Below the pieces are notes generated by a model. That model saw only the letters and a program-made list of their open reading frames with translations, ran no database searches and was not told the origin of the DNA. This document shows, in pieces, positions 21,309 through 35,293 of a stretch of 35,293 bases of DNA; position 1 is the stretch's first letter, and each line of letters opens with the position of its first letter. Position numbers and translations under genes: made by a program. The stretch is from IMG/VR virus record IMGVR_UViG_2778261341_000005; one strand, 5' to 3'. The stretch comes from a virus. Lineage: Duplodnaviria > Heunggongvirae > Uroviricota > Caudoviricetes.

Positions 21309-23132
21309 ATGCGCCGCCATAATGGGCGCATGGCTAAATATTCTGACGAAATTAAAGAGGCGGCCCGCTCGCTTTATCTGAAGCGGTGGCATCCCCGGGA
21401 TATTGCGGCGGAGCTCTGTATTCCGCCGCGCACGGTTTACCACTGGTGTGATGTGGGGCAGTGGGCCGCCCTGCTGCCCGCTGAATCCGTTGAGGAGGTG
21501 ATCGCCCGGCGTATTGATGTGCTGACCGGGCGCGAGGGCAAGACGGAGTGCGAACTTGCCGAACTGCGCGAGCTTATCGCACAGCACGTGAAGATTATCG
21601 CCCAGAAAAACAAACACGCTGAAAGGATGGCGGAAATTGCCGCCACGCGTCCGGCAGTGTGCGACGACGGTGTGGCGGCGACCAGCGGCGGGGGTGAAGG
21701 GAAAAAGCGGCGCTACCGGAAAAACGACGTTTCCGGGCTGACTGCTGAAATGCTGGATGCATGGGCGCGTAAAAATCTTTATGCCTACCAGCTGCACTGC
21801 CGCGAGAACCGGTACCGTGAGTGGCGTTTCATTCTCAAGAGTCGCCAGATAGGCATGACCTGGTATTTTGCATGGGAGGCGTTCGAAGATGCGGTGGTGA
21901 CCGGTGATAACCAGATATTCTTTTCTGCGTCACGGGTTCAGGCGGAAATCTTCCGCGAATATATTATTAACTTCGCCCTGCAGTTCGGGATCACGCTCAC
22001 GGGTAAGCATATCCGTTTAAGCAATGGCGCAATGCTGCGTTTCCTGTCCACCAATGCCAGTACCGCCCAGGGATTTAACGGCCACCTTTACGGCGATGAG
22101 GTGTTCTGGATCCCAAAATTCACGCGACTGCATGAAGTGGCCTCGGCAATGGCAACCCACGACAAATACCGAACGACGTACTTTTCCACGCCCAGCGCCA
22201 AAACCCACCAGGCTTATCTGGTGTGGAACGGTGACGAGTGGCGCGGCGATGATCCGGCGCGTCGTGCGGTTGAGTTTCCGAAAGAAAGTGCGATGCGTGT
22301 GGGGTGCGAATGTCCGGACGGGATCTGGCGCTACATTATCCGTCTGGAAGAGGCGGTGGCGGGTGGCCTGTCCGCGCGGGTCAATATTGAACGTATCAGG
22401 AATCGCTATAACCCGACCACCTACGCGATGCTGTACGGCTGCGAGTTTGTTGACAGCAAGGATGCGGTATTTAAGTTCTCCGAACTGGTCAGGTGCGAGG
22501 TGGAGATGGAGACGTGGGGGGACTACGACCCCACCGCAGCACGTCCGTTCGGCAATCGTGAGGTGTGGGCGGGCTTTGACCCGTCAAGGTCCGGGGATAA
22601 TTCCACGTTCGTGATTGTGGCTCCGCCGCTTCATAAGGGCGAACGTTTCCGGGTGCTCGCCGTCTGGCAGTGGCAGGGATTTAATTTCAGCTGGCAGGCC
22701 GAACAGATCCGCGAACTGATGCAGCGCTTTAACATTACCTATATCGGCATCGATATTACCGGCATCGGGAAAGGGGTGTTTGATATCGTCAGTCGCTTTG
22801 CGCCGCGTGAGGCTAACGCCATTCTTTACAGCGTGGAGAGCAAAAACCGCCTGGTGATGAAGATGATAGACGTGGTGGCCCATAAGCGTATCGAGTGGGC
22901 GAAAGATGCCATTGATGAGGCCAGCCGTGAACGCACGGAGATCCCCGCGTCGTTTATGGCCATACGCCGCACCACCACAAAAAGCGGTAACGCGCTGACG
23001 TTCGTGGCGGAACGGTCAGATGTTACGGGGCATGCGGATGTGTTTTTTGCCATTTCGCACGCCGTGATTAATGAGCCTGTTGATTATGACTATGAGCGCC
23101 CGTCCACATGGGCCTTCGGGAAAGCCGCATGA
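21309..23132 (+). CDS. terminase large (ATPase) subunit (gpP-like); start may be the ATG at 21330
   Basis: 607 aa; position and size as P2 P; stop overlaps the portal start (ATGA). Confidence 0.8.
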   Translation: MRRHNGRMAKYSDEIKEAARSLYLKRWHPRDIAAELCIPPRTVYHWCDVGQWAALLPAESVEEVIARRIDVLTGREGKTECELAELRELIAQHVKIIAQKNKHAERMAEIAATRPAVCDDGVAATSGGGEGKKRRYRKNDVSGLTAEMLDAWARKNLYAYQLHCRENRYREWRFILKSRQIGMTWYFAWEAFEDAVVTGDNQIFFSASRVQAEIFREYIINFALQFGITLTGKHIRLSNGAMLRFLSTNASTAQGFNGHLYGDEVFWIPKFTRLHEVASAMATHDKYRTTYFSTPSAKTHQAYLVWNGDEWRGDDPARRAVEFPKESAMRVGCECPDGIWRYIIRLEEAVAGGLSARVNIERIRNRYNPTTYAMLYGCEFVDSKDAVFKFSELVRCEVEMETWGDYDPTAARPFGNREVWAGFDPSRSGDNSTFVIVAPPLHKGERFRVLAVWQWQGFNFSWQAEQIRELMQRFNITYIGIDITGIGKGVFDIVSRFAPREANAILYSVESKNRLVMKMIDVVAHKRIEWAKDAIDEASRERTEIPASFMAIRRTTTKSGNALTFVAERSDVTGHADVFFAISHAVINEPVDYDYERPSTWAFGKAA

Positions 23133-24181
23133 GCAAGAAACGCAGAAACAAAACGTCACGCGTGACGAAAAAAGCATTCACGCCTGCACGTGGCAGCACA
23201 ATCACCTTCGGTCAGCCGGAACCGGTACTGACCACCGGCACGGATTACCACAACATCTGGTATGACAACGAATATAACCACTGGCAGCTGCCGATTAACC
23301 GTCTGGCACTGGCGCAGCTCCCGAACCTTAACGCCCAGCACGGTGGGGTACTGTATGCCCGTCGTAACATGGTGGCGGGGGGCTATACCGGTGGTGGTCT
23401 CACAACGGACCAGATGGAACAGGCGGTGTTTGACTACCTGTTGTTCGGCGATCTCGCTCTGCTCAAGGTGCGTAACGTATTCGGCGACGTCGTGGCACTT
23501 GAGCCGCTTCCGTCGCTGTATCTCCGGCGCCGCAAGACCGGCGAGTTTGTGGTGCTTCAGGAAGGGCCCGCGCTGGTCTATGTGCCGGAAGATATTATCT
23601 TTCTGCGGATGTATGATCCGCGCCAGCAAATTTACGGCCTGCCGGACTATATCGGAGGCATCCATTCGGCGCTGCTGAACAGTGAGGCCACCCTTTTTCG
23701 TCGTCGTTACTACAACAACGGGGCGCATATGGGGTTCCTGCTGTATACCAATGATCCCGGAATTACCACGGAGATGGAGGATGAGATCCGCGAGAAGGTG
23801 GCGGAGTCCAAGGGACTGGGAAATTTCCGCAATCTGTACATCAATATCCCTAAAGGGGCACCGGACGGGGTGAAAATTATCCCGATTGGTGAGGTGAGCG
23901 CCAAGGATGAATTTTCAAACATCAAGGGGATCAGTGCCCAGGATGTGTTTACAGCACACCGTTTTCCTGCCGGGCTTGCGGGTATTATCCCAACAAACGG
24001 AGCCACCATCCCCAACCCGGAGACGACGCGTGAAACGTACCGCAAGGATGAGGTGATACCGCTTCAGCGTAAAATCATGAATGCCGTGAACAGCGATCCC
24101 GATATACCGGAACACCTTCACCTCCGTTTTGATGCAGACGCCGGGCATGTGGCGGAAGAAAAAGTGGTGCCGGTCGGGTAA
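23129..24181 (+). CDS. portal protein (gpQ-like)
   Basis: ATLFRRRYYNNGAH and GLGNFRNLYINIPKGAPDGVKIIPIGEVSAKDEFSNIKGISAQD match P2 Q blocks; start ATG 23129-23131 overlaps the P stop. Confidence 0.9.
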   Translation: MSKKRRNKTSRVTKKAFTPARGSTITFGQPEPVLTTGTDYHNIWYDNEYNHWQLPINRLALAQLPNLNAQHGGVLYARRNMVAGGYTGGGLTTDQMEQAVFDYLLFGDLALLKVRNVFGDVVALEPLPSLYLRRRKTGEFVVLQEGPALVYVPEDIIFLRMYDPRQQIYGLPDYIGGIHSALLNSEATLFRRRYYNNGAHMGFLLYTNDPGITTEMEDEIREKVAESKGLGNFRNLYINIPKGAPDGVKIIPIGEVSAKDEFSNIKGISAQDVFTAHRFPAGLAGIIPTNGATIPNPETTRETYRKDEVIPLQRKIMNAVNSDPDIPEHLHLRFDADAGHVAEEKVVPVG

Positions 24182-24218
24182 AATGTCCTCCCCGGGATAC
24201 ATGTTATCGGGAGGTAAG

Positions 24219-24482
24219 ATGCGGATTTTTAAAGCCCGGTGTCCGGACTGTGGCGCACCTGCTGTCATCCGGAAGACAGACTGGAAAACCCCTGAACTTG
24301 CGGATCTGTACTGTGCATGCAGTGATGTCGAATGCGGGCATACCTTCGTCTGTACGATGACCTTTTCCCACACACTCAGTCCCGGTGCCCGCTCCGGTCG
24401 CAATCTGGTGAAGTTCCTGGTGGATACCATGCGGCCGGAAGATCGCCGGTATGCGCTTGAACTTCTGTCGCGGCATTCCTGA
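24219..24482 (+). CDS. Ogr/Delta-family zinc-finger late transcription activator
   Basis: 87 aa; C-x2-C-x22-C-x4-C (Cys8, Cys11, Cys34, Cys39); GGAGG Shine-Dalgarno upstream of ATG 24219. Confidence 0.8.
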   Translation: MRIFKARCPDCGAPAVIRKTDWKTPELADLYCACSDVECGHTFVCTMTFSHTLSPGARSGRNLVKFLVDTMRPEDRRYALELLSRHS

Positions 24483-24499
24483 CGCGCTTCGCTTGTCTG

Positions 24500-24542
24500 C
24501 TGCTTCACCGGGGCAAAAAGAATTTTTGCCCCGGTGAAGCAG
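24500..24542. terminator. perfect 20-bp-arm palindrome (3-nt loop) between convergent genes; putative bidirectional terminator
   Basis: ctgcttcaccggggcaaaaa-gaa-tttttgccccggtgaagcag; no flanking U-tract, so terminator function is an inference. Confidence 0.4.
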
Positions 24543-24544
24543 CT

Positions 24545-25108
24545 TCATGAAAAATCTGGTACTGAATACAGTGGTATAACCTGAAATCCGTTACACTTCC
24601 AGGACTGCGCTATATCTGGTGACTGCGTGATGGCGGGTAACGGGATTCTGTCATTACAGGTCACCCATGCCTTTGGCTCAGAGGTCAGGATCATTAACGC
24701 AATGCGGTAACTTTGTAGCCTGGCCTCATCATCCTCTGAAAGCCCGAACGGGATATCTGATTTTACCTCATCCATCTGTTCGATTCTCTTCCCTAAAAAT
24801 ACCGCGAGGAAGTTTCTGCTCTCCTGGCATAAGGCCATTTCCGGTATTGTGTACAGTGATTCAACATGTCGGCCTGCATGGTTCCAGGCTTTCACAGCGA
24901 CATCGTGTCGTGTAATGTCGAAAGAAAGGCTTTCTTTGCCCGGAGTGGGTGATCTCCATGCTACCGCCTTTGCGGTAAGTGCCTCCAGTGCAATACGGTG
25001 TACGCATAAGAGCATGAGGGTGTCATCGTCAGGAATCGCCAGTGTGTTTATTTTTTTCAAGCTGATCAATTTCATGGAGGTTATATTTTTTAGTTGTCTT
25101 CTTTTCAT
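24545..25108 (-). CDS. hypothetical protein (187 aa), lower-GC cargo gene
   Basis: Start placed at ATG 25106-25108 with AGGA Shine-Dalgarno (track ORF extends to 25240 over the upstream small gene); no motif recognised. Confidence 0.45.
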   Translation of the reverse strand: MKRRQLKNITSMKLISLKKINTLAIPDDDTLMLLCVHRIALEALTAKAVAWRSPTPGKESLSFDITRHDVAVKAWNHAGRHVESLYTIPEMALCQESRNFLAVFLGKRIEQMDEVKSDIPFGLSEDDEARLQSYRIALMILTSEPKAWVTCNDRIPLPAITQSPDIAQSWKCNGFQVIPLYSVPDFS

Positions 25109-25125
25109 ACGTTTTTTCCTTTCAG

Positions 25126-25290
25126 TCACGAGAGCAACCAGATAACCGCAACGGTTGCCGCATAAATTCTGGCGATAAAGCCCGGTGTGAAGTGGCGAAA
25201 CGGGTTTTCCCACGTCAGGAATGCCATTAAAGCAATCCATGCAATGGTAAAAATCAGCGCGCCCTTAACGGCGATAAACAGTTCGTTCAT
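25126..25290 (-). CDS. small membrane protein (54 aa, two predicted TM helices)
   Basis: AAGGAG 8 nt upstream of ATG 25288-25290; product MNELFIAVKGALIFTIAWIALMAFLTWENPFRHFTPGFIARIYAATVAVIWLLS; below track threshold. Confidence 0.4.
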   Translation of the reverse strand: MNELFIAVKGALIFTIAWIALMAFLTWENPFRHFTPGFIARIYAATVAVIWLLS

Positions 25291-25364
25291 TGTGGTGTTC
25301 TCCTTTGTTTATCGGGTGAATGAATTTCGTTGCTGTGAGAAAAATCAGGCGTGCCAGCGCAGCC

Positions 25365-25553
25365 TTACTGCTGACGGCGTTCCCGGAGTTCGGTCAGTGC
25401 TGCAAGTAAATTCTCCCACCACGTTTCTTCCACGACCGGATTTTGTCGTGAAAGCAACTGCTGCGCCGACTCAATCATCTTCTTCAGGTCTTTGTCGCTG
25501 ATCCTCCTGGTGTCGTTCATGGTGCGCTCCTTTAGTTGGCTGTTTCTGGTCAT
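25365..25553 (-). CDS. hypothetical small protein (62 aa or shorter)
   Basis: ORF abutting the stop of the 138-aa gene; charged and helical; no motif. Confidence 0.3.
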   Translation of the reverse strand: MTRNSQLKERTMNDTRRISDKDLKKMIESAQQLLSRQNPVVEETWWENLLAALTELRERRQQ

Positions 25554-25555
25554 GT

Positions 25556-25972
25556 TTATGGTCTTTGTTGTCTGCGTGATTGTCTGCTGGCGGTTGAATT
25601 CACATAGCGGGCAATTGCTGCTTTGCGGTTAATCAATGCCAGTGTTCTGGTCAGTTCTGCGTTGTGTTTGTGTGCCTGCTCTTCGTGGTACTGCCGCATG
25701 ATTTTTCCGGCAGGCGTGAGCGGCTCCGGCTCCCCGGGCGGACGGCGCGGACGAACGGCGACAAGCCAGCTGCGGTTAGTGCTGTCCGGTCGTCCGTTGA
25801 GTATGTCGGTGATGATGGTCGTGGTGGTTCTGTCGGGGCTGACGACCGTGATTTCCAGCTCGTCGCCCGGTTGTGGTCTCGTGGCAATGTTGTTCAGGGG
25901 CAGTAAGGGCGTGCGCTGGCGCATCATTTCGTCAAATTGCCGGTGCTGCATGCTGCAATAAAAGCGGGTCAT
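25556..25972 (-). CDS. hypothetical protein (138 aa) downstream of A
   Basis: Start overlaps the A stop (translational coupling). Confidence 0.45.
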   Translation of the reverse strand: MTRFYCSMQHRQFDEMMRQRTPLLPLNNIATRPQPGDELEITVVSPDRTTTTIITDILNGRPDSTNRSWLVAVRPRRPPGEPEPLTPAGKIMRQYHEEQAHKHNAELTRTLALINRKAAIARYVNSTASRQSRRQQRP

Positions 25973-28497
25973 TGTGGCGCCTCCGTATTCGGTGCGGGGG
26001 TGATATCAATGCGGCGGGTGCTGTCATTCCAGTACGCGGTGCGTCCGTCAGCCAGGCGAACGCGGGCACCGTGACGGACGGAAACGACGGCGCTTTCATG
26101 CAGATGCACGCCCAGCGCATTGAGCTCGCGGGTGATTTGTGCGGTGATGTGTGGTTCAGAGGTCAGAGCGACACTCACGCGAACGCCGCCAGCGGGCGCA
26201 CTGATGCCGCCGTTTTTCACGGTTTCCGTGTCAGGTGGCAGGTTTTTCAGCTGCCTGGTGAGTTGTTTTCGCTCTGTGGGGGTCAGTGACCTTAACCATT
26301 CACCCAAATCACCTTCCGGCAGGGTAAGTCGCTGCTCCCTGCGTCCGTCCGGCTGCCTTTCTGGCGGGTCGTTTATGGTCAGATTCTGGTCAGGGGGACA
26401 GTTATTGCCACGAGTCCAAGGTGCGGCAAAGCCGCACTCAACGTCAAAACCCTCGTCCGTGCGGTCTTCGTTTTCCGGCTTACGTCTGACCAGTTTCCAG
26501 GTGTCCGGGTGGGTGCATATGGTGTAGCGCTCCCCGAGTGACGGGGCGCGGACGCCGTAAATGCGTTGCGGGAATTCGCCGTAGTCGTTGGCCTCTTCGG
26601 CAGTTTCGTATGCGGTGCGGACCAGGTACGTGTTGCGGGGAATGAGCACACCACCCTGGCGGGTGATATATGTGGCAAAACATCCCACGTCGGCGGCGGC
26701 CAGTATGGCGTCAATGTCGTCATGGTCCAGACGCTGCGGGACAGCCGGGTTACGGGCCATCTGCCCGGCAAGGCGGCGGAGTTCTCGCCATACCTGGCGG
26801 GGAGGGATACCGAAGAACTGGAACTGGCGGATGCGGTGAAGGGCCGCCCAGCCGATGGCGTTCTCCACGGTTTCGGCCATGGTTTTGCCTGATTCCTTAT
26901 CGACGTAAGGTTTGCCGGTTTTCGGGTCATTCCCCATGAAGGCGCTGGCGTCCAGGTTCTTACCGATATAGGTCGCGATATAGCTCGCCGGTGTGCCTTT
27001 TGCCGGGTCGATTTTTTCGCATTTAAAACGCGGGGAGATATCATCACCCAGCTCTGCGCGGTCCTCCCTGATGGCGGCGTTGCGCATGATTTCAGTGATA
27101 CGGGCTTCGTTTTCCGGGCTGGTGAATACCAGCATGTGCCAGTGCGGTGTACCGTCGTGGTGGGGCTCCACGGTGCGCACGCCGTACCAGCCCAGCCCGG
27201 CCTTGTTGATGGCCCTGCGGACGGCGGCGAAAAAGCGGTAAACCAGATAATCACTGGCATCACGTACCGTTGCTCCGCAGTATTTCGGGTTCAGGCTGCC
27301 GTCATCGTTCACGCTGTGAAAACGGGAAGGGGCTGTGACGGTGACGAAAAACGCCAGGTCGCCGCGTGCTTCGGCGACCTGCTCCATTCCCCGGACGCAG
27401 GCCATCATCTCGTTACGGCGGTTACGCGGATTAGAGAGACCTGCCCAGTAGATATCCTCAAGGCTGAACCGTTCTCCCTCTTCGTTCTCGATGTCCCAGG
27501 CCTTCAGAAAATCGCGGGTGCGCTGGCGTTTTTCGCGCCAGTCCAGTAACGCTTCATGGCTGATATATACCGATGTCTTACGTGACACCAGACCTGCGGC
27601 GCGTAACAGCTCTTCACGCCAGATGTCCCGGAGGTGTCTTAACTGACTGTTCCACCATGTCGCACAGGAAAGGCGCATGACCGCACCCGGCACCTGTTCC
27701 GGGTCGGGGGCGGTGCGGCGGTCGGGTCTGATTTCCAGCGACGGCCAGCAGGGTGGCGTGATACCCAGTTTTAACGCCATGTGTGCCAGTGGCTGGTAGG
27801 TCAGTAACCAGGTGAACAGGTCATCGTCACCCCTGCCGGTCTTTTCGATGACCTCATCACATGCGCGCTCCAGTGCGGCGGAAAACGCGGTGGCGGTCAG
27901 GGTGGCAAGGCGCTGGATTTCGTCACGGCTCAGCTGCGGCAGCATAAGCAGTTCATCCAGCCGTTCGCGGGCGGCGGTGGCCTTAAAGGCCGGGGTGGCA
28001 AAGCGTTCATTCACACGGGCGATACGTTTCAGGCGGGCACGCAGCCCGTGACGAACGAAGTTATCCGCCGCGTATGCGCTGTTGTTCTTAAGCCCTTCCC
28101 GGCGTGCGCTCTCCTGTTTGCGGCTCAGGCGTGCCAGGTCCCGGATGAGCGGACCGGCAAGAAACGGCGGCAGGGCGCGCAGCTCTGCCATGGCTTCAGA
28201 TACCAGCGTGGGTGGATTTTCGCGTTTGTGCCGCGCCAGTTTTTCCAGCCTGATCCGACGCTCTTCGTCGTGGTGAAGATGCGAATTAATTCGCTTGCCT
28301 TCGTCTGTGTTTGTCAGGAAGTCGACGGTCTCTTCATCCAGTCTTGCATCAATGCGAATGTCTTCGTTGATGTAGCTCTGAATGGCCTGGCGCAATGCGG
28401 TTGGTTGCGCTCTGCCGAATGTTTCAGGATCGATAACCGGTAGCGGGGCGTTCCACGGGTACGCCAGTTGTGCGTTATGGTCGCTCATGCGTCGCAC
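25969..28497 (-). CDS. replication initiation protein A (HUH rolling-circle endonuclease, P2 gpA family)
   Basis: 842 aa; HUH motif (HHDGTPHWHMLVF) and twin-tyrosine motif (YIATYIGKN). Confidence 0.9.
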   Translation of the reverse strand: MRRMSDHNAQLAYPWNAPLPVIDPETFGRAQPTALRQAIQSYINEDIRIDARLDEETVDFLTNTDEGKRINSHLHHDEERRIRLEKLARHKRENPPTLVSEAMAELRALPPFLAGPLIRDLARLSRKQESARREGLKNNSAYAADNFVRHGLRARLKRIARVNERFATPAFKATAARERLDELLMLPQLSRDEIQRLATLTATAFSAALERACDEVIEKTGRGDDDLFTWLLTYQPLAHMALKLGITPPCWPSLEIRPDRRTAPDPEQVPGAVMRLSCATWWNSQLRHLRDIWREELLRAAGLVSRKTSVYISHEALLDWREKRQRTRDFLKAWDIENEEGERFSLEDIYWAGLSNPRNRRNEMMACVRGMEQVAEARGDLAFFVTVTAPSRFHSVNDDGSLNPKYCGATVRDASDYLVYRFFAAVRRAINKAGLGWYGVRTVEPHHDGTPHWHMLVFTSPENEARITEIMRNAAIREDRAELGDDISPRFKCEKIDPAKGTPASYIATYIGKNLDASAFMGNDPKTGKPYVDKESGKTMAETVENAIGWAALHRIRQFQFFGIPPRQVWRELRRLAGQMARNPAVPQRLDHDDIDAILAAADVGCFATYITRQGGVLIPRNTYLVRTAYETAEEANDYGEFPQRIYGVRAPSLGERYTICTHPDTWKLVRRKPENEDRTDEGFDVECGFAAPWTRGNNCPPDQNLTINDPPERQPDGRREQRLTLPEGDLGEWLRSLTPTERKQLTRQLKNLPPDTETVKNGGISAPAGGVRVSVALTSEPHITAQITRELNALGVHLHESAVVSVRHGARVRLADGRTAYWNDSTRRIDITPAPNTEAPQ

Positions 28498-28969: not shown

Positions 28970-29197
28970 TTAGTGGTGGTGTTGCTGGTTGATGAGGCTT
29001 TGCAGTTCTGCCATATCTTCGGCGAGATAGCTGAAGACAGCAGCGCAGTAACGGTTTGATAGCGCGTGCGTGCGCTCATGCAGCATGTTGATATGCATGA
29101 TTTGCGCGACGCGTGATGCGCGCCAGAGTCTGCGGTTGATTTCAGTGCGGATGTGAAGACGCTCAGCGCGGGCGCGCTGTTGCCTGCGGTTTGCCAT
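28970..29197 (-). CDS. hypothetical early protein (75 aa, basic)
   Basis: Preferred over the overlapping 206-aa ORF 28888..29508, whose product is low-complexity S/T/R-rich. Confidence 0.4.
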   Translation of the reverse strand: MANRRQQRARAERLHIRTEINRRLWRASRVAQIMHINMLHERTHALSNRYCAAVFSYLAEDMAELQSLINQQHHH

Positions 29198-29376
29198 GGT
29201 GTTTGGCCTCTTGTAGTAAGTTCTGAAAACTCACCATCCAGAGCTGCGAAACAGTGGGTGGCGAGACGTACGAGGTTCGCAGTACCGGCTACAAGAGATC
29301 CCGGCCCGACCGAAGTCGGCCCCGTACGCCCCGCCATAATTCTGACGCGAAAAAGACGTGGCGATACAGTACGCAC

Positions 29377-29397
29377 AAAAAAACCGCTGGCGCGGTT
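29377..29397 (-). terminator. intrinsic terminator inside the early region (putative)
   Basis: Plus strand aaaaaaa + accgctggcgcggt: read on the minus strand a GC hairpin followed by T7. Confidence 0.4.
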
Positions 29398-29519
29398 GTG
29401 CGCTCTTGTAGTCGGCAGGCTGCGAAACCCGGCACCCGTTTTATGAGGTGCAGCGGGAATGTAACCTGACTGATTGCGGCATGGCAAGCGGTTTTTTTGT
29501 GTGTGCATGTTCTGGTTTC

Positions 29520-31313: not shown

Positions 31314-31568
31314 TTAAACAAAATCGCTTAATGATTTACCTGATTCAATCTTCTCTATCGTGTCTTCAATAGCCATGTATGCGGCGTAATCGCCTGCGAG
31401 GTCGGCGCATTTCTGTAGCCCCTGTAATGCGCTGATGATATCTTCTTTTGCTTCCCATAAAGGTTTTGCTGTATTTAGTGCATTACGGGCATTATTAGCT
31501 ATGAGCCGGTGTATGATAATTGTGTAGGCTGATGCTATCTCTGCCATGTCTTTTGTCGTTGTTGCCAT
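31314..31568 (-). CDS. hypothetical early protein (84 aa)
   Basis: ORF in operon context. Confidence 0.4.
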   Translation of the reverse strand: MATTTKDMAEIASAYTIIIHRLIANNARNALNTAKPLWEAKEDIISALQGLQKCADLAGDYAAYMAIEDTIEKIESGKSLSDFV

Positions 31569-31571
31569 GTA

Positions 31572-31907
31572 TTAATTCCCCCATGGATGCTGAAAACTGC
31601 GACCGCTGATTAACCGGTCTGCCGTTCTTAATGCTTCGTGCAGGGTGAAATCCTGCCCGAACTGCTCATCTCCGCGAGTCAGGGAGTAACAGGTATTTCC
31701 GGTAATCGGGTTGCGTGCGCCTCTGTGTATGACAATTCCGGCATCATTAATCAGCCAGGTGTGTTTACCGGTTTGTTTAACCAGATGCCCGTCAGGTGTG
31801 GCGTGCGTTTCCTGCAGGCTGTAGTGCGAGTTGCTGCGTGATGCGCTGGTTGAGAAACGGTTAGCGTGGCGTTCTGTTCCGGTGCGGAAGCTGCGTCTCT
31901 GTGTCAT
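31572..31907 (-). CDS. hypothetical early protein (111 aa), first gene after the 31908-32015 promoter/operator region
   Basis: Upstream intergenic region carries palindrome ccacgc-ccggc-gcgtgg. Confidence 0.4.
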   Translation of the reverse strand: MTQRRSFRTGTERHANRFSTSASRSNSHYSLQETHATPDGHLVKQTGKHTWLINDAGIVIHRGARNPITGNTCYSLTRGDEQFGQDFTLHEALRTADRLISGRSFQHPWGN

Positions 31908-32015
31908 ATCGGAAAACCCCGTTTAAGTTAAATGAAAATCAGTGCCGGGATGTTTAACCACGCCCGGCGCGTGGTATTCTGGTGTTTCCACACAACCAGA
32001 AAAAAGGTAACTAAC

Positions 32016-32339
32016 ATGATTGATAAAAGCGTTAAGGACGCTATCACTGAATACCTGGTTAGCATTTACACAACTAATCTTGCTGTGGCTCCTGTTGATA
32101 AGTTGACCGACCCAAGAGACTCAGTGGGAGTGGTGTCCGATCTGCTTATTTCGCTCCTCATTAGCGAACTTCCCGATGATAAAAGGGATGCATTGATGAA
32201 AACTGCGTCAGAAATTTTGCGTCAGATAGAGGGGCAACAAGCCTTTGCTCCCTATGCCGTGAATATAAGGACACGCTTTCATAGTATTAATCATCTTGCG
32301 TGCTTTATTCGCGCCTCTAAAGACAAACCAGATCTCTGA
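32016..32339 (+). CDS. hypothetical protein (107 aa), AT-rich cargo cassette
   Basis: Start placed at ATG 32016; convergent with and overlapping the 3' end of the 172-aa gene; no motif. Confidence 0.4.
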   Translation: MIDKSVKDAITEYLVSIYTTNLAVAPVDKLTDPRDSVGVVSDLLISLLISELPDDKRDALMKTASEILRQIEGQQAFAPYAVNIRTRFHSINHLACFIRASKDKPDL

Positions 32340-32835
32340 CTTGTTCAACAATATATTTTTCCACCCCTTCTTTGACTGGCAGGTTCCGGTCAAGGGAGGG
32401 GAAAAGAATCAATGGTTTTTGTAAAAATCCCATTAACGTCGATAAAAACTCAATTTTCACATTGAAGCCTTCTGATTTTCGTCGCATTATTTCGCGTTGT
32501 ACGATTGGCCACATGTAGTCCAGGTTAATTTCCTTTAGCTCCGCAACATAATTAAGGTATGCCTCGCACCCCTGAATGCTTACAGGTCTAAAAGAAATAT
32601 CCAGATAATTATCAGGAATAATCGTACTGGTTGAATAAATAATTCCACCCACAACCCTATCTTTGTGCTTTATTGCTCTGACAAAAAATGTTTTGCCTTC
32701 TAAATCCCTTTCTGTTGCCAGCCAGGGGTCTCCTGTTATCAGGCAATCCTCATCAATGGCGATTACTTCGCCAGCCTTACTCCCGTGTTCGCTGTATTTC
32801 TTATGCATACCTTCTTCTTCTGGTGTAATCGTCAT
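32317..32835 (-). CDS. hypothetical protein (172 aa), AT-rich cargo cassette
   Basis: Visibly AT-rich coding sequence relative to flanking phage genes; no motif recognised. Confidence 0.5.
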   Translation of the reverse strand: MTITPEEEGMHKKYSEHGSKAGEVIAIDEDCLITGDPWLATERDLEGKTFFVRAIKHKDRVVGGIIYSTSTIIPDNYLDISFRPVSIQGCEAYLNYVAELKEINLDYMWPIVQREIMRRKSEGFNVKIEFLSTLMGFLQKPLILFPSLDRNLPVKEGVEKYIVEQVRDLVCL

Positions 32836-32855
32836 ATATCCTCCTTCGTGCCGGG

Positions 32856-33251
32856 TTATTCCGTCGTTTTGCTTTTGTAAATAGTGGTTTTATTAAGTGC
32901 CATTTCTCCGAATATATCCACAGCCTGATCAACGGGCAGATTAATCATTATTCCACGGGTTGCGTATAGCATTATTCCGATGCATCCATTTTCTCTACTT
33001 TCGCAAAAGTGCCCGAACTCTGCTTCTGGTTTAAGTATCAGGTCATCAATGTTTTCATTCGCTTTTAGCTTTGAACAAAAGTTAATTAATCCTTCAAGCT
33101 CTTTGTGTAACTCGCTATAGGTTGTTGTGATTGTTATTTTCGGTGAGCCTTCCAGATGCATCAGTATCGTGGCGTCCTTGTGTTCCTCTTTCAGGAGGCT
33201 TAACTGCTTAAGGACGGTTGCGGTTTTTTCTGATTTATTTTTGCCGCTCAT
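32856..33251 (-). CDS. hypothetical protein (131 aa), AT-rich cargo cassette
   Basis: Visibly AT-rich; lies directly downstream of the Cox-like gene; no motif recognised. Confidence 0.5.
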   Translation of the reverse strand: MSGKNKSEKTATVLKQLSLLKEEHKDATILMHLEGSPKITITTTYSELHKELEGLINFCSKLKANENIDDLILKPEAEFGHFCESRENGCIGIMLYATRGIMINLPVDQAVDIFGEMALNKTTIYKSKTTE

Positions 33252-33257
33252 CGATCA

Positions 33258-33782
33258 TCACCGTTCGTTTACATCCTGGCTCTGTTCCAGCTTTGACTTT
33301 CTGCCTTTGTAAACCCGTTTTCCATTGACGGTCTGGCAATCTTCCTTATCAGCCGGGGTAAACTTTCTTTTCTGGCGGTCGTATGTCCAGTAGCTTTTCC
33401 AGTTGTGCCATTCTGGTGGCTCGCATTCCGGGAGTTCGTCGGCCAGCTTGTCCCACTCTCTGACGTTAAACCACCAAACACCATCCGAATTCTCATCTTC
33501 AGGGTTTGAGCGGGTTTTATGCCCTGGCATCTGGTTACGCTGAAGAGCTGCGCGTAATGCTGTTTTTGTTAATCCGATGTAGGCGGCCCCTTTTTCAAGT
33601 GAGCAAAGCCCGGCTATTGGGCCATCTAGCCGCAGGGTTGCCCCTTTTTTATATGTGCGCTGTGGCTTTTGTTCGTCGTTGTTATCTGTTGCTTCTTGTT
33701 GACTGGTATCGGCGTTGATGTACGCCGCTCCAGTTGTGTGATCGGTGTCAGATAACTCTTTATCGGCAATGAAGTCCCGCAT
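33258..33782 (-). CDS. Cox/Apl-like excisionase-regulator (HTH), extended form; true start uncertain
   Basis: Core ATLRLDGPIAGLCSLEKGAAYIGLTKTALRAALQRNQMPG ... DGVWWFNVREWD aligns with P2 Cox (VTLMTDAIPYQEFAKLIGKSTGAVRRMIDKGKLP ... EYWVYLPAWN); divergent from the C repressor gene. Confidence 0.5.
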   Translation of the reverse strand: MRDFIADKELSDTDHTTGAAYINADTSQQEATDNNDEQKPQRTYKKGATLRLDGPIAGLCSLEKGAAYIGLTKTALRAALQRNQMPGHKTRSNPEDENSDGVWWFNVREWDKLADELPECEPPEWHNWKSYWTYDRQKRKFTPADKEDCQTVNGKRVYKGRKSKLEQSQDVNER

Positions 33783-33883
33783 TTGTTATCCTCTCGCACA
33801 GGTGCGCCTATTGCACCTTATGAAGGTTTGTTTTGGTTTGTTTAATGTCGAAATTACGACACTTTTGCGAGGATTTTAGTGGT
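33783..33883. promoter_or_regulatory. immunity switch region between cox-like and C genes (putative early and repressor promoters/operators)
   Basis: Position between divergent Cox-like and C genes; contains GCAC-N2-GTGC and a further TTGCACC repeat. Confidence 0.4.
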
Positions 33884-34231
33884 ATGAATTCGACACTGTC
33901 AATAAGTATCGGTGAAAAAATCTTGATGATCCGGAAAAGTGAGAGGCTTACAAGGAAGCAATTCTTTGAGCTTACAGGGATTCCTGTTAATACGCAGAGG
34001 TATTACGAAACGGGAAGGCAAGATGGAATCGGAAGTGAGATCTTATTAAAGATCACAAAAAATTTACGTTTTAAAAAATATGCACTTTGGTTAACAACTG
34101 ATGAAACGTTTGAAGCTGGGGGTCAAATTGCCCCGGCTCTCTCTCTTGATGGATCTTCTCAGTCGGAGGGCGATCTGGCTTCAATCGACGTTACCCAAAA
34201 ATCATCCCGATCAGGCCGCAATGCTGGCTGA
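33884..34231 (+). CDS. immunity repressor (P2 C-type, HTH)
   Basis: From ATG 33884 (GAGGA Shine-Dalgarno): MNSTLSISIGEKILMIRKSERLTRKQFFELTGIPVNTQRYYETGRQ ... GGQIAPALSLDG closely parallels P2 C (EKIVLMRKSEYLSRQQLADLTGVP...YYESGR...SGQIAPALAHFG). Confidence 0.8.
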   Translation: MNSTLSISIGEKILMIRKSERLTRKQFFELTGIPVNTQRYYETGRQDGIGSEILLKITKNLRFKKYALWLTTDETFEAGGQIAPALSLDGSSQSEGDLASIDVTQKSSRSGRNAG

Positions 34232-34300
34232 CGTTACACATCGAGCGGGTTTCATCCCGCAGGGAGTGTTTGGTTAATTTATCCGTTGGAGGGGCTAATC

Positions 34301-35293
34301 ATGTCGATTAAGCAACTCAAAGACGGACGTTATAAGGTTGATGTAAGGCCACAAGGGACGGAAGGAAAGCGGATTCGTAAGATTTTTACCCTGAAGTCAA
34401 AGGCGCAGGAGTTTGAAAGGTATGTTTTGCAGAATTTTCATGATAAGCCATGGCAGGCTAAGCCAGCAGATCAGCGTCGGTTATCCGAACTGATAGAGGC
34501 CTGGTGGTTGCTTGATGGTCGTAACCAGGATTACGGGGATACCTACAGGGTCAGACTGGAAAAGATAAACCGTGAGATGGGTGATCCTCGTGCCAGTCAG
34601 ATGACGCGAAAATTTATGCTCGGGTACCGGTCCGACAAATTACAGGCCGGGTTAATGCCTTCCAGCATTAACCGCGATTTGTGTGCCTTGTCTGCAATGT
34701 TCAGCTCGCTGATTGAGGGTGAGGTGTTCCATAACGAAAACCCGGTTCGGGGAATACGTAAGCTGAAAGTCAGGAACACAGAGATGGCCTTTCTTTCAGA
34801 TGAGGAGATTGAACGACTGCTTGAACGACTCGATGGAGATGCGCGGCGTGTTGCCATTCTGTGTCTTTCCACGGGGGCAAGGTGGGGCGAAGCAGCTGGT
34901 TTACGTGGGGAACATATTGTAGGTAACCGCGTGATGTTCTTTAACACCAAGAACGGAAAATCTCGCGCCGTTCCCGTTTCTGATGCGGTACTTGCGTTAA
35001 TTAAAACCCGCAGAACCGGATTGTTGTACCAGGCTGATTACCTCAGATTTCGGGAGATCCTTCAGGAGGTGAAGCCGGACTTGCCGAAAGGGCAGGCCAC
35101 CCATGTCATGCGTCATACATTCGCTACACATTTCATGATGAATGGCGGAAATATCGTTACGCTACAACGAATCCTGGGCCATGCCACGATTCAACAAACG
35201 ATGACGTATGCGCATTTTTCGCCGGACTTTTTACAGGATGCAATCAGCTTTAATCCGCTGGCTGAAAGTGTCCATAAACTGTCCATCGATTAG
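34301..35293 (+). CDS. int: tyrosine integrase (P2 Int family)
   Basis: MSIKQLKDGRYKVDVRPQGTEGKRIRKIF ... ILCLSTGARWGEAAGL ... HVMRHTFATHFMMNGGNIVTLQRILGH ... YAHFSP matches P2 Int blocks including the catalytic R..H..R..Y region; stop is the last codon of the window. Confidence 0.93.
   Translation: MSIKQLKDGRYKVDVRPQGTEGKRIRKIFTLKSKAQEFERYVLQNFHDKPWQAKPADQRRLSELIEAWWLLDGRNQDYGDTYRVRLEKINREMGDPRASQMTRKFMLGYRSDKLQAGLMPSSINRDLCALSAMFSSLIEGEVFHNENPVRGIRKLKVRNTEMAFLSDEEIERLLERLDGDARRVAILCLSTGARWGEAAGLRGEHIVGNRVMFFNTKNGKSRAVPVSDAVLALIKTRRTGLLYQADYLRFREILQEVKPDLPKGQATHVMRHTFATHFMMNGGNIVTLQRILGHATIQQTMTYAHFSPDFLQDAISFNPLAESVHKLSID

Follow-up and report, generated by a model that had tools for sequence, protein, structure and literature searches.

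We analyzed a DNA stretch of 35,293 nucleotides from a virus record of the Caudoviricetes (IMG/VR IMGVR_UViG_2778261341_000005), the whole of which is referred to here as the window. It contains a P2-like (Peduoviridae) prophage of E. coli between serS and dmsA, and this study concerns three orphan genes, orf107, orf172 and orf131, which lie between the Cox-like gene and the conserved early genes of this prophage. We found that the three genes are real accessory cargo and that they form a patchwork instead of a single cassette. The interval is best explained as a mosaic of accessory modules in a variable slot, one of which, the antisense gene orf107, is preceded by a conserved, structured leader that recurs in front of unrelated genes in other temperate phages. 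For orf107 and its convergent neighbor orf172, we tentatively favor a role in exclusion plus escape in the style of sieB.

The slot between cox and DUF4761 is variable

The initial annotation had proposed an AT-rich three-gene cassette at this site. The list of open reading frames (ORFs) agrees with it on the positions and strands of the genes and on the convergence of orf107 with orf172. The interval and its borders are composed as follows:

32016..32339, + strand: orf107, 107 aa, antisense to the early operon, behind the conserved leader
32317..32835, - strand: orf172, 172 aa, early-operon sense gene and sense half of the convergent pair
32856..33251, - strand: orf131, 131 aa, early-operon sense gene
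33258..33782, - strand: Cox-like excisionase/regulator, 174 aa (Pfam Phage_Cox, 27.4 bits; phrog_23196, 3e-95)
31572..31907, - strand: DUF4761 gene (Pfam DUF4761, 6e-49), first conserved early gene past the slot and its downstream border

The early operon begins with the Cox-like gene, which forms the upstream border of the slot. The operon runs on the - strand, and a consensus scan identified a promoter-like site (TTGACA-18-TAAAAT) at 33902..33873. The 3' ends of orf107 and orf172 overlap by 23 nt. Regarding translation signals, orf172 has a strong Shine-Dalgarno sequence (AAGGAGG), while those of orf107 (AAGG) and orf131 (GGTGA) are weaker.

With DUF4761 as anchor, 69 related viral loci were collected, and the slot contents were counted over 71 loci. 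In 54 of the 71, the slot is empty: the distance between the integrase gene and DUF4761 is minimal, and cox abuts DUF4761. The other loci carry at least seven other gene sets, which bears out the expectation that homologous prophages hold different genes at this site. Among these fillings are a sense 64-aa gene; orf131 together with an antisense 64-aa gene; orf131-like proteins (26–33% identity) together with an antisense 60-aa gene; antisense genes of 149–151 aa; and an orf172 homologue (54–59% identity) with a sense gene of 99 aa behind it, orf131 and orf107 being absent. Additionally, eight further complete E. coli genomes contain the same prophage at the same site with an orf131 that is 97–98% identical, and in all of them a single 64-aa gene on the + strand takes the place of orf107 and orf172. 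The boundaries of this swap between sister prophages are sharp, with the alignment breaking at ~32005 and ~32865.

Because of these different fillings across loci, we conclude that the slot is truly variable and that orf131 and orf172 assort independently. The proposal of one three-gene cassette had to be abandoned, since orf131 is kept while orf107 and orf172 are exchanged for a 64-aa gene, and since orf172 homologues occur without orf131. The latter gene belongs to a recurrent family, termed here the X domain, that comes after Cox in some P2-like phages; its homologues (26–33% identity) occupy the same position.

The GC content of the three-ORF interval is 41.6% compared to 55.3% for the window, and the interval is approximately the lowest-GC stretch of 1,236 bp in the window (0.3% of sliding windows are as low). 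The claim that it is more AT-rich than any flanking phage gene went too far, as the repressor gene (41.6% GC), orf84 (42.4%), and orf41 (38.1%) are equally AT-rich; the contrast holds against the late genes and against part of the early ones only. The slot has unrelated contents between the same core genes in related phages, and the interval deviates in GC content from the phage backbone, although some neighboring early genes are similar.

The three proteins are rare and form new families

None of the three products matched an entry in Pfam, PHROGs, PADLOC, NCBIfam or the PDB, in agreement with the earlier statement that they show no recognizable motif. A PADLOC check had been suggested in the expectation of defense or toxin cargo, and none of the families in PADLOC-DB v2 gave a match to the three proteins at E ≤ 1. 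Specifically, orf107 and orf172 matched no toxin or antitoxin family (Pfam, PADLOC, NCBIfam), orf131 and orf172 gave no helix-turn-helix or CII match (Pfam, PHROGs, NCBIfam), and the SieB domain (PF14163) was found in none of the three, which have no Pfam match at all. All three proteins are acidic and soluble according to prediction and have no predicted transmembrane segment, with a maximum 19-residue hydropathy of ~1.3; the pI of orf107 is 5.6. Neither a membrane segment nor a nuclease motif was detected in orf107 and orf172. The AlphaFold2 model of orf131 was unusable (pLDDT 37).

The proteins are also rare. Among 5.8 billion proteins, they fall into four (orf172), two (orf131), and one (orf107) clusters; every source name given for these clusters is E. 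coli, and two of the clusters carry none. Of 5,426 complete E. coli genomes, 3 carry the interval in full. The cassette of E. coli O22:H8 strain 154 (NZ_CP067426) is 99.6% identical to that of the window. A tblastn search with the three proteins against 50,697 GenBank phage records found none of them. Searching IMG/VR for related loci with the orf172 alignment revealed no further relatives. An exhaustive profile search with the orf172 family against 1.84 billion representatives added one credible remote homologue, P0011 (153 aa, E 3e-4). Because intact homologues at 30–59% identity exist in other elements, the comparisons identify all three ORFs as real genes. Judged by their sequences, the proteins constitute new families, with no function assigned by homology.

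A conserved leader precedes the antisense genes

Upstream of orf107, comparison of sequences and covariation delimited the following elements on the + strand:

31933..32015: conserved leader of the antisense gene, ~80 nt
31933-31939: TGnGAAT-like motif
31944-31949 with 31963-31968: hairpin A (GCCGGG with CCCGGC)
31953-31975: 23-nt core
31957-31963 with 31969-31975: hairpin B (CCAYGC/GCRTGG), mutually exclusive with hairpin A
31977-31983 with 31995-32001: stem adjoining the Shine-Dalgarno sequence
32004-32007: Shine-Dalgarno sequence AAGG

The core sequence is GCCGGG-ttttaRCCAYG-CCCGGC-RCRTGG. Its abundance was determined by exact matches to a degenerate pattern of the 23-nt core. The pattern occurs in 104 viral-contig stretches of IMG/VR and has 12 matches among species-representative genomes, all of them Enterobacterales; it is found once in the window, where none is expected by chance. 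In 113 of 113 copies, the Y and R positions of hairpin B change in concert. Covariation was further computed from 18 distinct leaders of the short form. In these, pairing of hairpin B reaches 99%, with C:G↔U:A and A:U↔G:U changes, the latter of which favor an RNA on the + strand. The stem adjoining the Shine-Dalgarno sequence, which lies outside the search pattern, is 93.7% paired and shows compensatory changes at five of its seven pairs. Conservation upstream of hairpin A is limited to ~11 nt (TG-n-GAAT-nn-GT), and no -35-like motif is present there. No terminator-like site follows orf107, the 3' end of which overlaps orf172. Rfam 15 contains no family that matches the leader at the gathering score (the only such matches in the window are C4 and isrK, elsewhere), and the best hit at lax thresholds was STnc490 (12.6 bits, E 3.1). 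The core was not found printed in the literature searched.

The leader precedes every antisense gene that we found in the slot (loci L002, L009, L062, L064, and L075). In another prophage (L074), it stands before a 78-aa gene between cox and the repressor gene. It is absent from loci with an empty slot or with sense genes only. In all loci with P2-type markers (~65), the leader is flanked by the gpA/DUF4761 side and the C/int side and is oriented opposite to the early operon. It also accompanies antisense genes at other sites and in further phage families. The initial annotation had placed a promoter/operator palindrome at 31908-32015, from which the early operon was thought to restart. The palindromic region does exist, but the comparative data assign it to the + strand gene: since the leader is confined to loci with antisense genes and is directed against the early operon, it is not the restart promoter or operator of that operon. 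We rejected such a promoter on the basis of this distribution and the lack of a consensus promoter. An intrinsic terminator of the early operon was likewise discarded, because most copies have no U-tract after the hairpins on the - strand.

The possibility that the leader is a target of the C4-like and isrK RNAs of the phage was also considered and rejected as support, as the duplex energies were not clearly better than those of shuffled sequences (best z -2.35, isrK against the - strand). Separately, we noted that the 5' part of the isrK-like RNA (29377-29451) contains GUGCCGGGUUU, which is almost identical to the 5' arm of hairpin A (31940-31955). For this likeness of GUGCCGGGUUU, chance and shared ancestry are both possible, and the duplex with the - strand of the leader is marginal (z -2.35).

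Unrelated cargo genes follow the leader in several phage families

In 96 copies, an ATG with a Shine-Dalgarno sequence is located 35–183 nt after the core. The 96 ORFs that start there belong to 31 unrelated families and are mostly 56–100 aa in length. One of them, in locus L077, is a SieB homologue (PF14163, 5e-26) with the exact core upstream. Another resembles the antitoxin GhoS (22.7 bits compared to a cut-off of 21), and a zinc-ribbon family matches the PADLOC candidate PDC-M14A (5e-7). The P22-like Salmonella phage SPN9CC has its annotated sieB in antisense orientation just behind N, and immediately upstream of this gene stands a diverged copy of the leader. Salmonella phage SopEPhi (AY319521, L180) carries a 95%-identical leader between orf4/fil and orf3/cII that points toward cI and int; orf3 is a true CII homologue. 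Directly behind this leader, we identified a 91-aa ORF with a Shine-Dalgarno sequence (L180 3071-3346) that is unannotated in the GenBank record and whose family also occurs in the IMG/VR loci L099 and L130. In the lambdoid Enterobacteria phage HK225 (L181 1849-2363), an antisense hypothetical gene of 136 aa, located between Q/tR' and the holin gene, has the core upstream. As this is the classical Q-S moron slot, the leader is not tied to positions close to the immunity region. Overall, it was found in P2-like, 186-like, P4-like, and lambdoid/P22-like phages of Enterobacterales.

Most of the cargos have a partner ORF on the sense strand that abuts or overlaps the 3' end of the cargo. The partner families track the cargo families; the cargo of 151–155 aa, for example, always has a domain termed Y at its side. 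Co-varying pairs of cargo and partner are seen in L075, L126, L081, L103, and L141, among others. The orf131-like X domain is a separate and more conserved unit, which is sometimes fused to Y. Some cargos have no partner at all, such as the 78-aa gene in L074. Two candidate relationships were tried and not retained. Alignments of the 199-aa and 135-aa sense partners to the orf172 family were rejected as evidence (hhalign E 0.005 with a probability of 7%, and E 0.22, respectively), leaving only the resemblance of an EHVGxxxY motif, and a relation of orf107 to other helical cargos, including the 91-aa ORF of SopEPhi, is a lead only (hhalign E 0.007, probability 6%).

The convergent pair is kept in an unrelated backbone

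P0011, the remote homologue of orf172, comes from a P4-like element (L075) that also contains a Cox/Vis-like gene, a gene of 72 aa, a Toprim primase gene, and an Ogr/Delta gene. A 96-aa gene is immediately convergent to P0011 with a 3' overlap of 38 nt, and the same leader is present. The 96-aa protein is homologous to orf107 (31% identity over 90 aa, pairwise E 2e-6) and shares the motif VSDxLISLLISEL with it. The convergent arrangement is thus kept in an unrelated backbone at protein identities of 18% (orf172) and 31% (orf107). The pair is also present with an 89%-identical variant of orf172. When the window is compared to the E. coli prophage L182, orf172 (L182 4001-4516) has diverged by 5.8% in nucleotides, while orf131 and orf107 differ by 0.3–0.9% and cox by <1%. 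The pN/pS of orf172 is 0.59 (window compared to the 89%-identical variant). This divergence pattern points to a local recombination patch within the gene and to what seems to be only moderate constraint.

A candidate exclusion-plus-escape module and its alternatives

The sieB gene of P22 and lambda is reportedly accompanied by an esc product and a sas antisense RNA. By analogy to this precedent, we propose, as a possibility held with less than even confidence, that orf107 is a sieB-style moron made in the lysogen, that orf172 is its partner in the early operon, and that the two have a candidate exclusion-plus-escape function. The first module of the interval is orf131, a member of the family that recurs after Cox, which would be transcribed from the early promoter Pe. 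The second is the convergent pair, in the proposed scheme with orf172 read from Pe along with the early operon and orf107 read in the opposite direction from behind the structured leader of ~80 nt, which may serve as a portable moron front end for dozens of unrelated small genes lying antisense inside lytic operons. While Pe is repressed, orf107 would be made in the lysogen and might act on incoming phages or on the host. Firing of Pe, be it upon induction or upon superinfection by a phage of the same type, would send transcription through the overlapping 3' ends and oppose orf107 expression; it would also yield orf172 as a cognate partner, either as a neutralizer (escape) or as a co-factor. 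The sieB precedent and the geometry of the locus suggest expression in the lysogen and the override by Pe, and it is by analogy that exclusion activity and a physical or functional coupling of orf107 and orf172 may be expected.

Several observations weigh against this proposal. The orf172 homologues at 54–59% identity occur beside the sense 99-aa gene without orf107 or the leader, and the partnership of orf172 and orf107 is therefore not obligate. The convergent pair is documented in two independent lineages only. A consensus scan found no sigma-70 promoter in the leader on either strand, and the upstream part offers only a weak TGnGAAT-like motif, so that promoter activity of the leader and expression of orf107 in the lysogen are assumptions. 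Moreover, SieB is the sole known function bearing on defense among the ten cargo families scanned, and orf107, being soluble and acidic, is unlike the membrane-bound SieB in sequence and predicted localization. It also has no homology to any defense protein in PADLOC.

The position of orf131 and orf172 in the Pe operon directly after cox, together with the strong Shine-Dalgarno sequence of orf172, would also fit accessory genes of the lytic cycle, for which early helper functions (e.g., anti-defense or host take-over) could be envisaged, with orf107 as an unrelated moron or regulator and no exclusion plus escape. Genes that are on only when Pe fires would be unable to protect a lysogen, orf172 homologues exist without orf107, and the orf131 family pairs with several different antisense cargos. 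We nevertheless regard this explanation as unlikely, given that the convergent orf172/orf107 arrangement and its 3' overlap are kept at 18–31% protein identity in an unrelated backbone, that partner and cargo families co-vary across many loci, and that no anti-defense family was matched (Pfam, PHROGs, PADLOC). Small, tightly linked and overlapping genes with mutually antisense transcription across their 3' ends also bring to mind a toxin-antidote or abortive-infection pair. In such a pair, one protein would be toxic (e.g., a Kil-like early product) and the other, or antisense transcription, would restrain it in the lysogen, resulting in an addiction or abortive-infection module. The GhoS-like cargo behind the same leader (22.7 bits, cut-off 21) and the fact that convergent sense/antisense pairs are the rule there are in line with this idea. 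It appears improbable, however, because type II toxin-antitoxin operons are co-directional while orf107 and orf172 converge, because neither toxin or antitoxin domains nor membrane segments or nuclease motifs were detected, and because partnerless cargos such as the 78-aa gene in L074 exist behind the leader.

The remaining alternative assigns the genes to the lysis-lysogeny decision, as lineage-specific counterparts of cII and pE of phage 186, with the leader as an establishment-type promoter firing toward C and int. The position matches that of apl-cII in 186-like phages, the leader of SopEPhi lies immediately downstream of cII and points to cI and int, and a transcript of orf107 would run toward the repressor and integrase genes. 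Yet most relatives have nothing in the slot and presumably are viable temperate phages all the same, arguing that its genes do not belong to core regulation. In addition, no helix-turn-helix or CII-like domain was found, the same leader serves sieB and a gene of the Q-lysis region in lambdoid phages, and the genes behind it are hypervariable. We therefore consider this explanation very unlikely. Returning to the proposed exclusion-plus-escape function, the comparisons directly show that the genes are real and rare, that the slot is variable and its modules have defined boundaries, and that the convergent pair is kept in two unrelated backbones. For the leader, they show its conservation, covariation, orientation, and the diversity of its cargo.

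These properties raise a broader and, in our view, doubtful idea: the leader of ~80 nt may be an undescribed portable control element, acting as a structured 5' leader or an operator, that is the hallmark of a whole group of cassettes embedded in antisense orientation in the temperate phages and satellites of Enterobacterales. Many such cassettes would combine a lysogen effector with an early-operon partner (exclusion plus escape), and orf107/orf172 would be one new family among them. The distribution of the leader suggests a common regulatory logic, in which the cargo would be expressed in the lysogen until firing of the lytic operon overrides it, and the recurrent convergent partners raise the idea of built-in self-immunity. 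Defense and exclusion genes of prophages are now found mainly by domain content and in a few known hotspots, and the small proteins described here, which have no domains, escape PADLOC. As the leader tags sieB and more than 30 other cargo families in P2-like, 186-like, P4-like, and lambdoid backbones and is always directed against the lytic operon around it, it provides a position-independent way to list antisense-embedded genes. If it is indeed a portable control element, it would serve as a search handle for dozens of uncharacterized small exclusion or host-modulating proteins that defense finders miss. For the window itself, what had been an anonymous AT-rich cassette is resolved into defined modules with clear boundaries for cloning.

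Neighboring features of the prophage

Toward the end of the window, the gene order is small early genes, DUF4754, DUF4761, the three-ORF interval, the Cox-like gene, repressor, and integrase. Further landmarks are:

1-1293: serS, at the window start (tRNA-synt_2b and Seryl_tRNA_N)
23108-24181: portal gene (gpQ)
25969-28497: gpA (Phage_GPA, 1e-106), with a string of small early genes beyond
33833..34231, + strand: C-type immunity repressor with helix-turn-helix (phrog_147, 5e-27)
34286-35293: integrase (from the ORF list), truncated by the window end

In a near-identical E. coli prophage, the counterparts of the repressor and integrase genes are annotated as 'helix-turn-helix domain-containing protein' and 'phage integrase', respectively, and beyond prophages of this near-identical type the next gene of the E. 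coli host is dmsA.

A second small presence/absence polymorphism of the early operon is represented by orf84 (31314-31568, - strand, 42.4% GC), located between DUF4761 and DUF4754, which is present in the window and in L182 and absent from the otherwise near-identical prophages L001 and L002. Within the same operon, Rfam identified two tandem RNAs on the - strand, of which one is isrK-like (29377-29451, 65.5 bits) and the other is a C4 antisense RNA (29254-29341, 81.1 bits). They are directly followed by a 75-aa ORF (28970-29197, - strand), whose counterparts in related prophages are annotated as 'derepression protein' or match PF25738. The stretch from 28970 to 29451 thus constitutes a P4/P1-style RNA immunity and derepression module in a P2-like phage. 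The canonical P2 defense hotspot between the portal gene (gpQ) and gpA (24204-25972, - strand) holds three ORFs of 114, 231, and 138 aa without a Pfam or PADLOC match. They form a second set of uncharacterized cargo, at the site where P2 has old and tin.

Comparison with known systems

The initial annotation had regarded the site as a fixed cargo position of P2-type phages. The site is not one of the classical positions, the main hotspot of P2 lying between gpA and gpQ (PMC9122126). The interval between integrase and gpA is reported as a minor defense hotspot of P2-like phages that holds 8% of their systems (PMC13586616). Term searches in the main texts of PMC9122126 and PMC13586616 found cox mentioned in neither, and no description of a conserved leader or of an antisense or convergent architecture. 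The genes described here resemble the lysogenic-conversion and defense cargo of P2 (old, tin, fun/Z) in being a compositionally foreign and highly variable set at a set position between core genes. They differ from it in lying beside cox instead of in the well-populated classical hotspot, in being far smaller than typical defense systems, and in having no PADLOC match.

The morons of lambdoid phages are said to be autonomous units of promoter, gene, and terminator. Like them, the unit behind the leader is an extra gene that is inserted among core genes, differs from them in composition, and has a candidate control element of its own upstream, and the leader is also found in the lambdoid phage HK225. 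In contrast to morons, one conserved structured upstream element is common here to 31 cargo families and several phage families, and the unit is systematically antisense to the operon, often with a convergent sense gene. The BstA/aba system is reported to be a prophage defense with cognate self-immunity. It is alike in concept, being a prophage defense near the repressor with a built-in self-escape, a feature that orf107/orf172 might share by analogy. There is no homology between the two, and the self-immunity of BstA is a DNA site within the gene and not a second protein.

Parallels are also found with sieB of P22 and lambda, an accessory gene that likewise lies antisense in an early lytic operon near the immunity region. 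It has a related leader upstream (with the exact core in L077 and in diverged form in SPN9CC), a layout that orf107 shares, and an escape or antisense layer at the same locus, for which orf172 would be the candidate on the side of orf107. Unlike sieB, orf107 has neither a SieB domain nor a membrane segment. The escape factor of P22 is an internal translation product plus a small RNA, whereas the candidate partner here is a separate protein of 172 aa encoded on the opposite strand. Overall, we rate the kind of system as already known, namely as morons and sieB-like prophage cargo, and the protein families as new.

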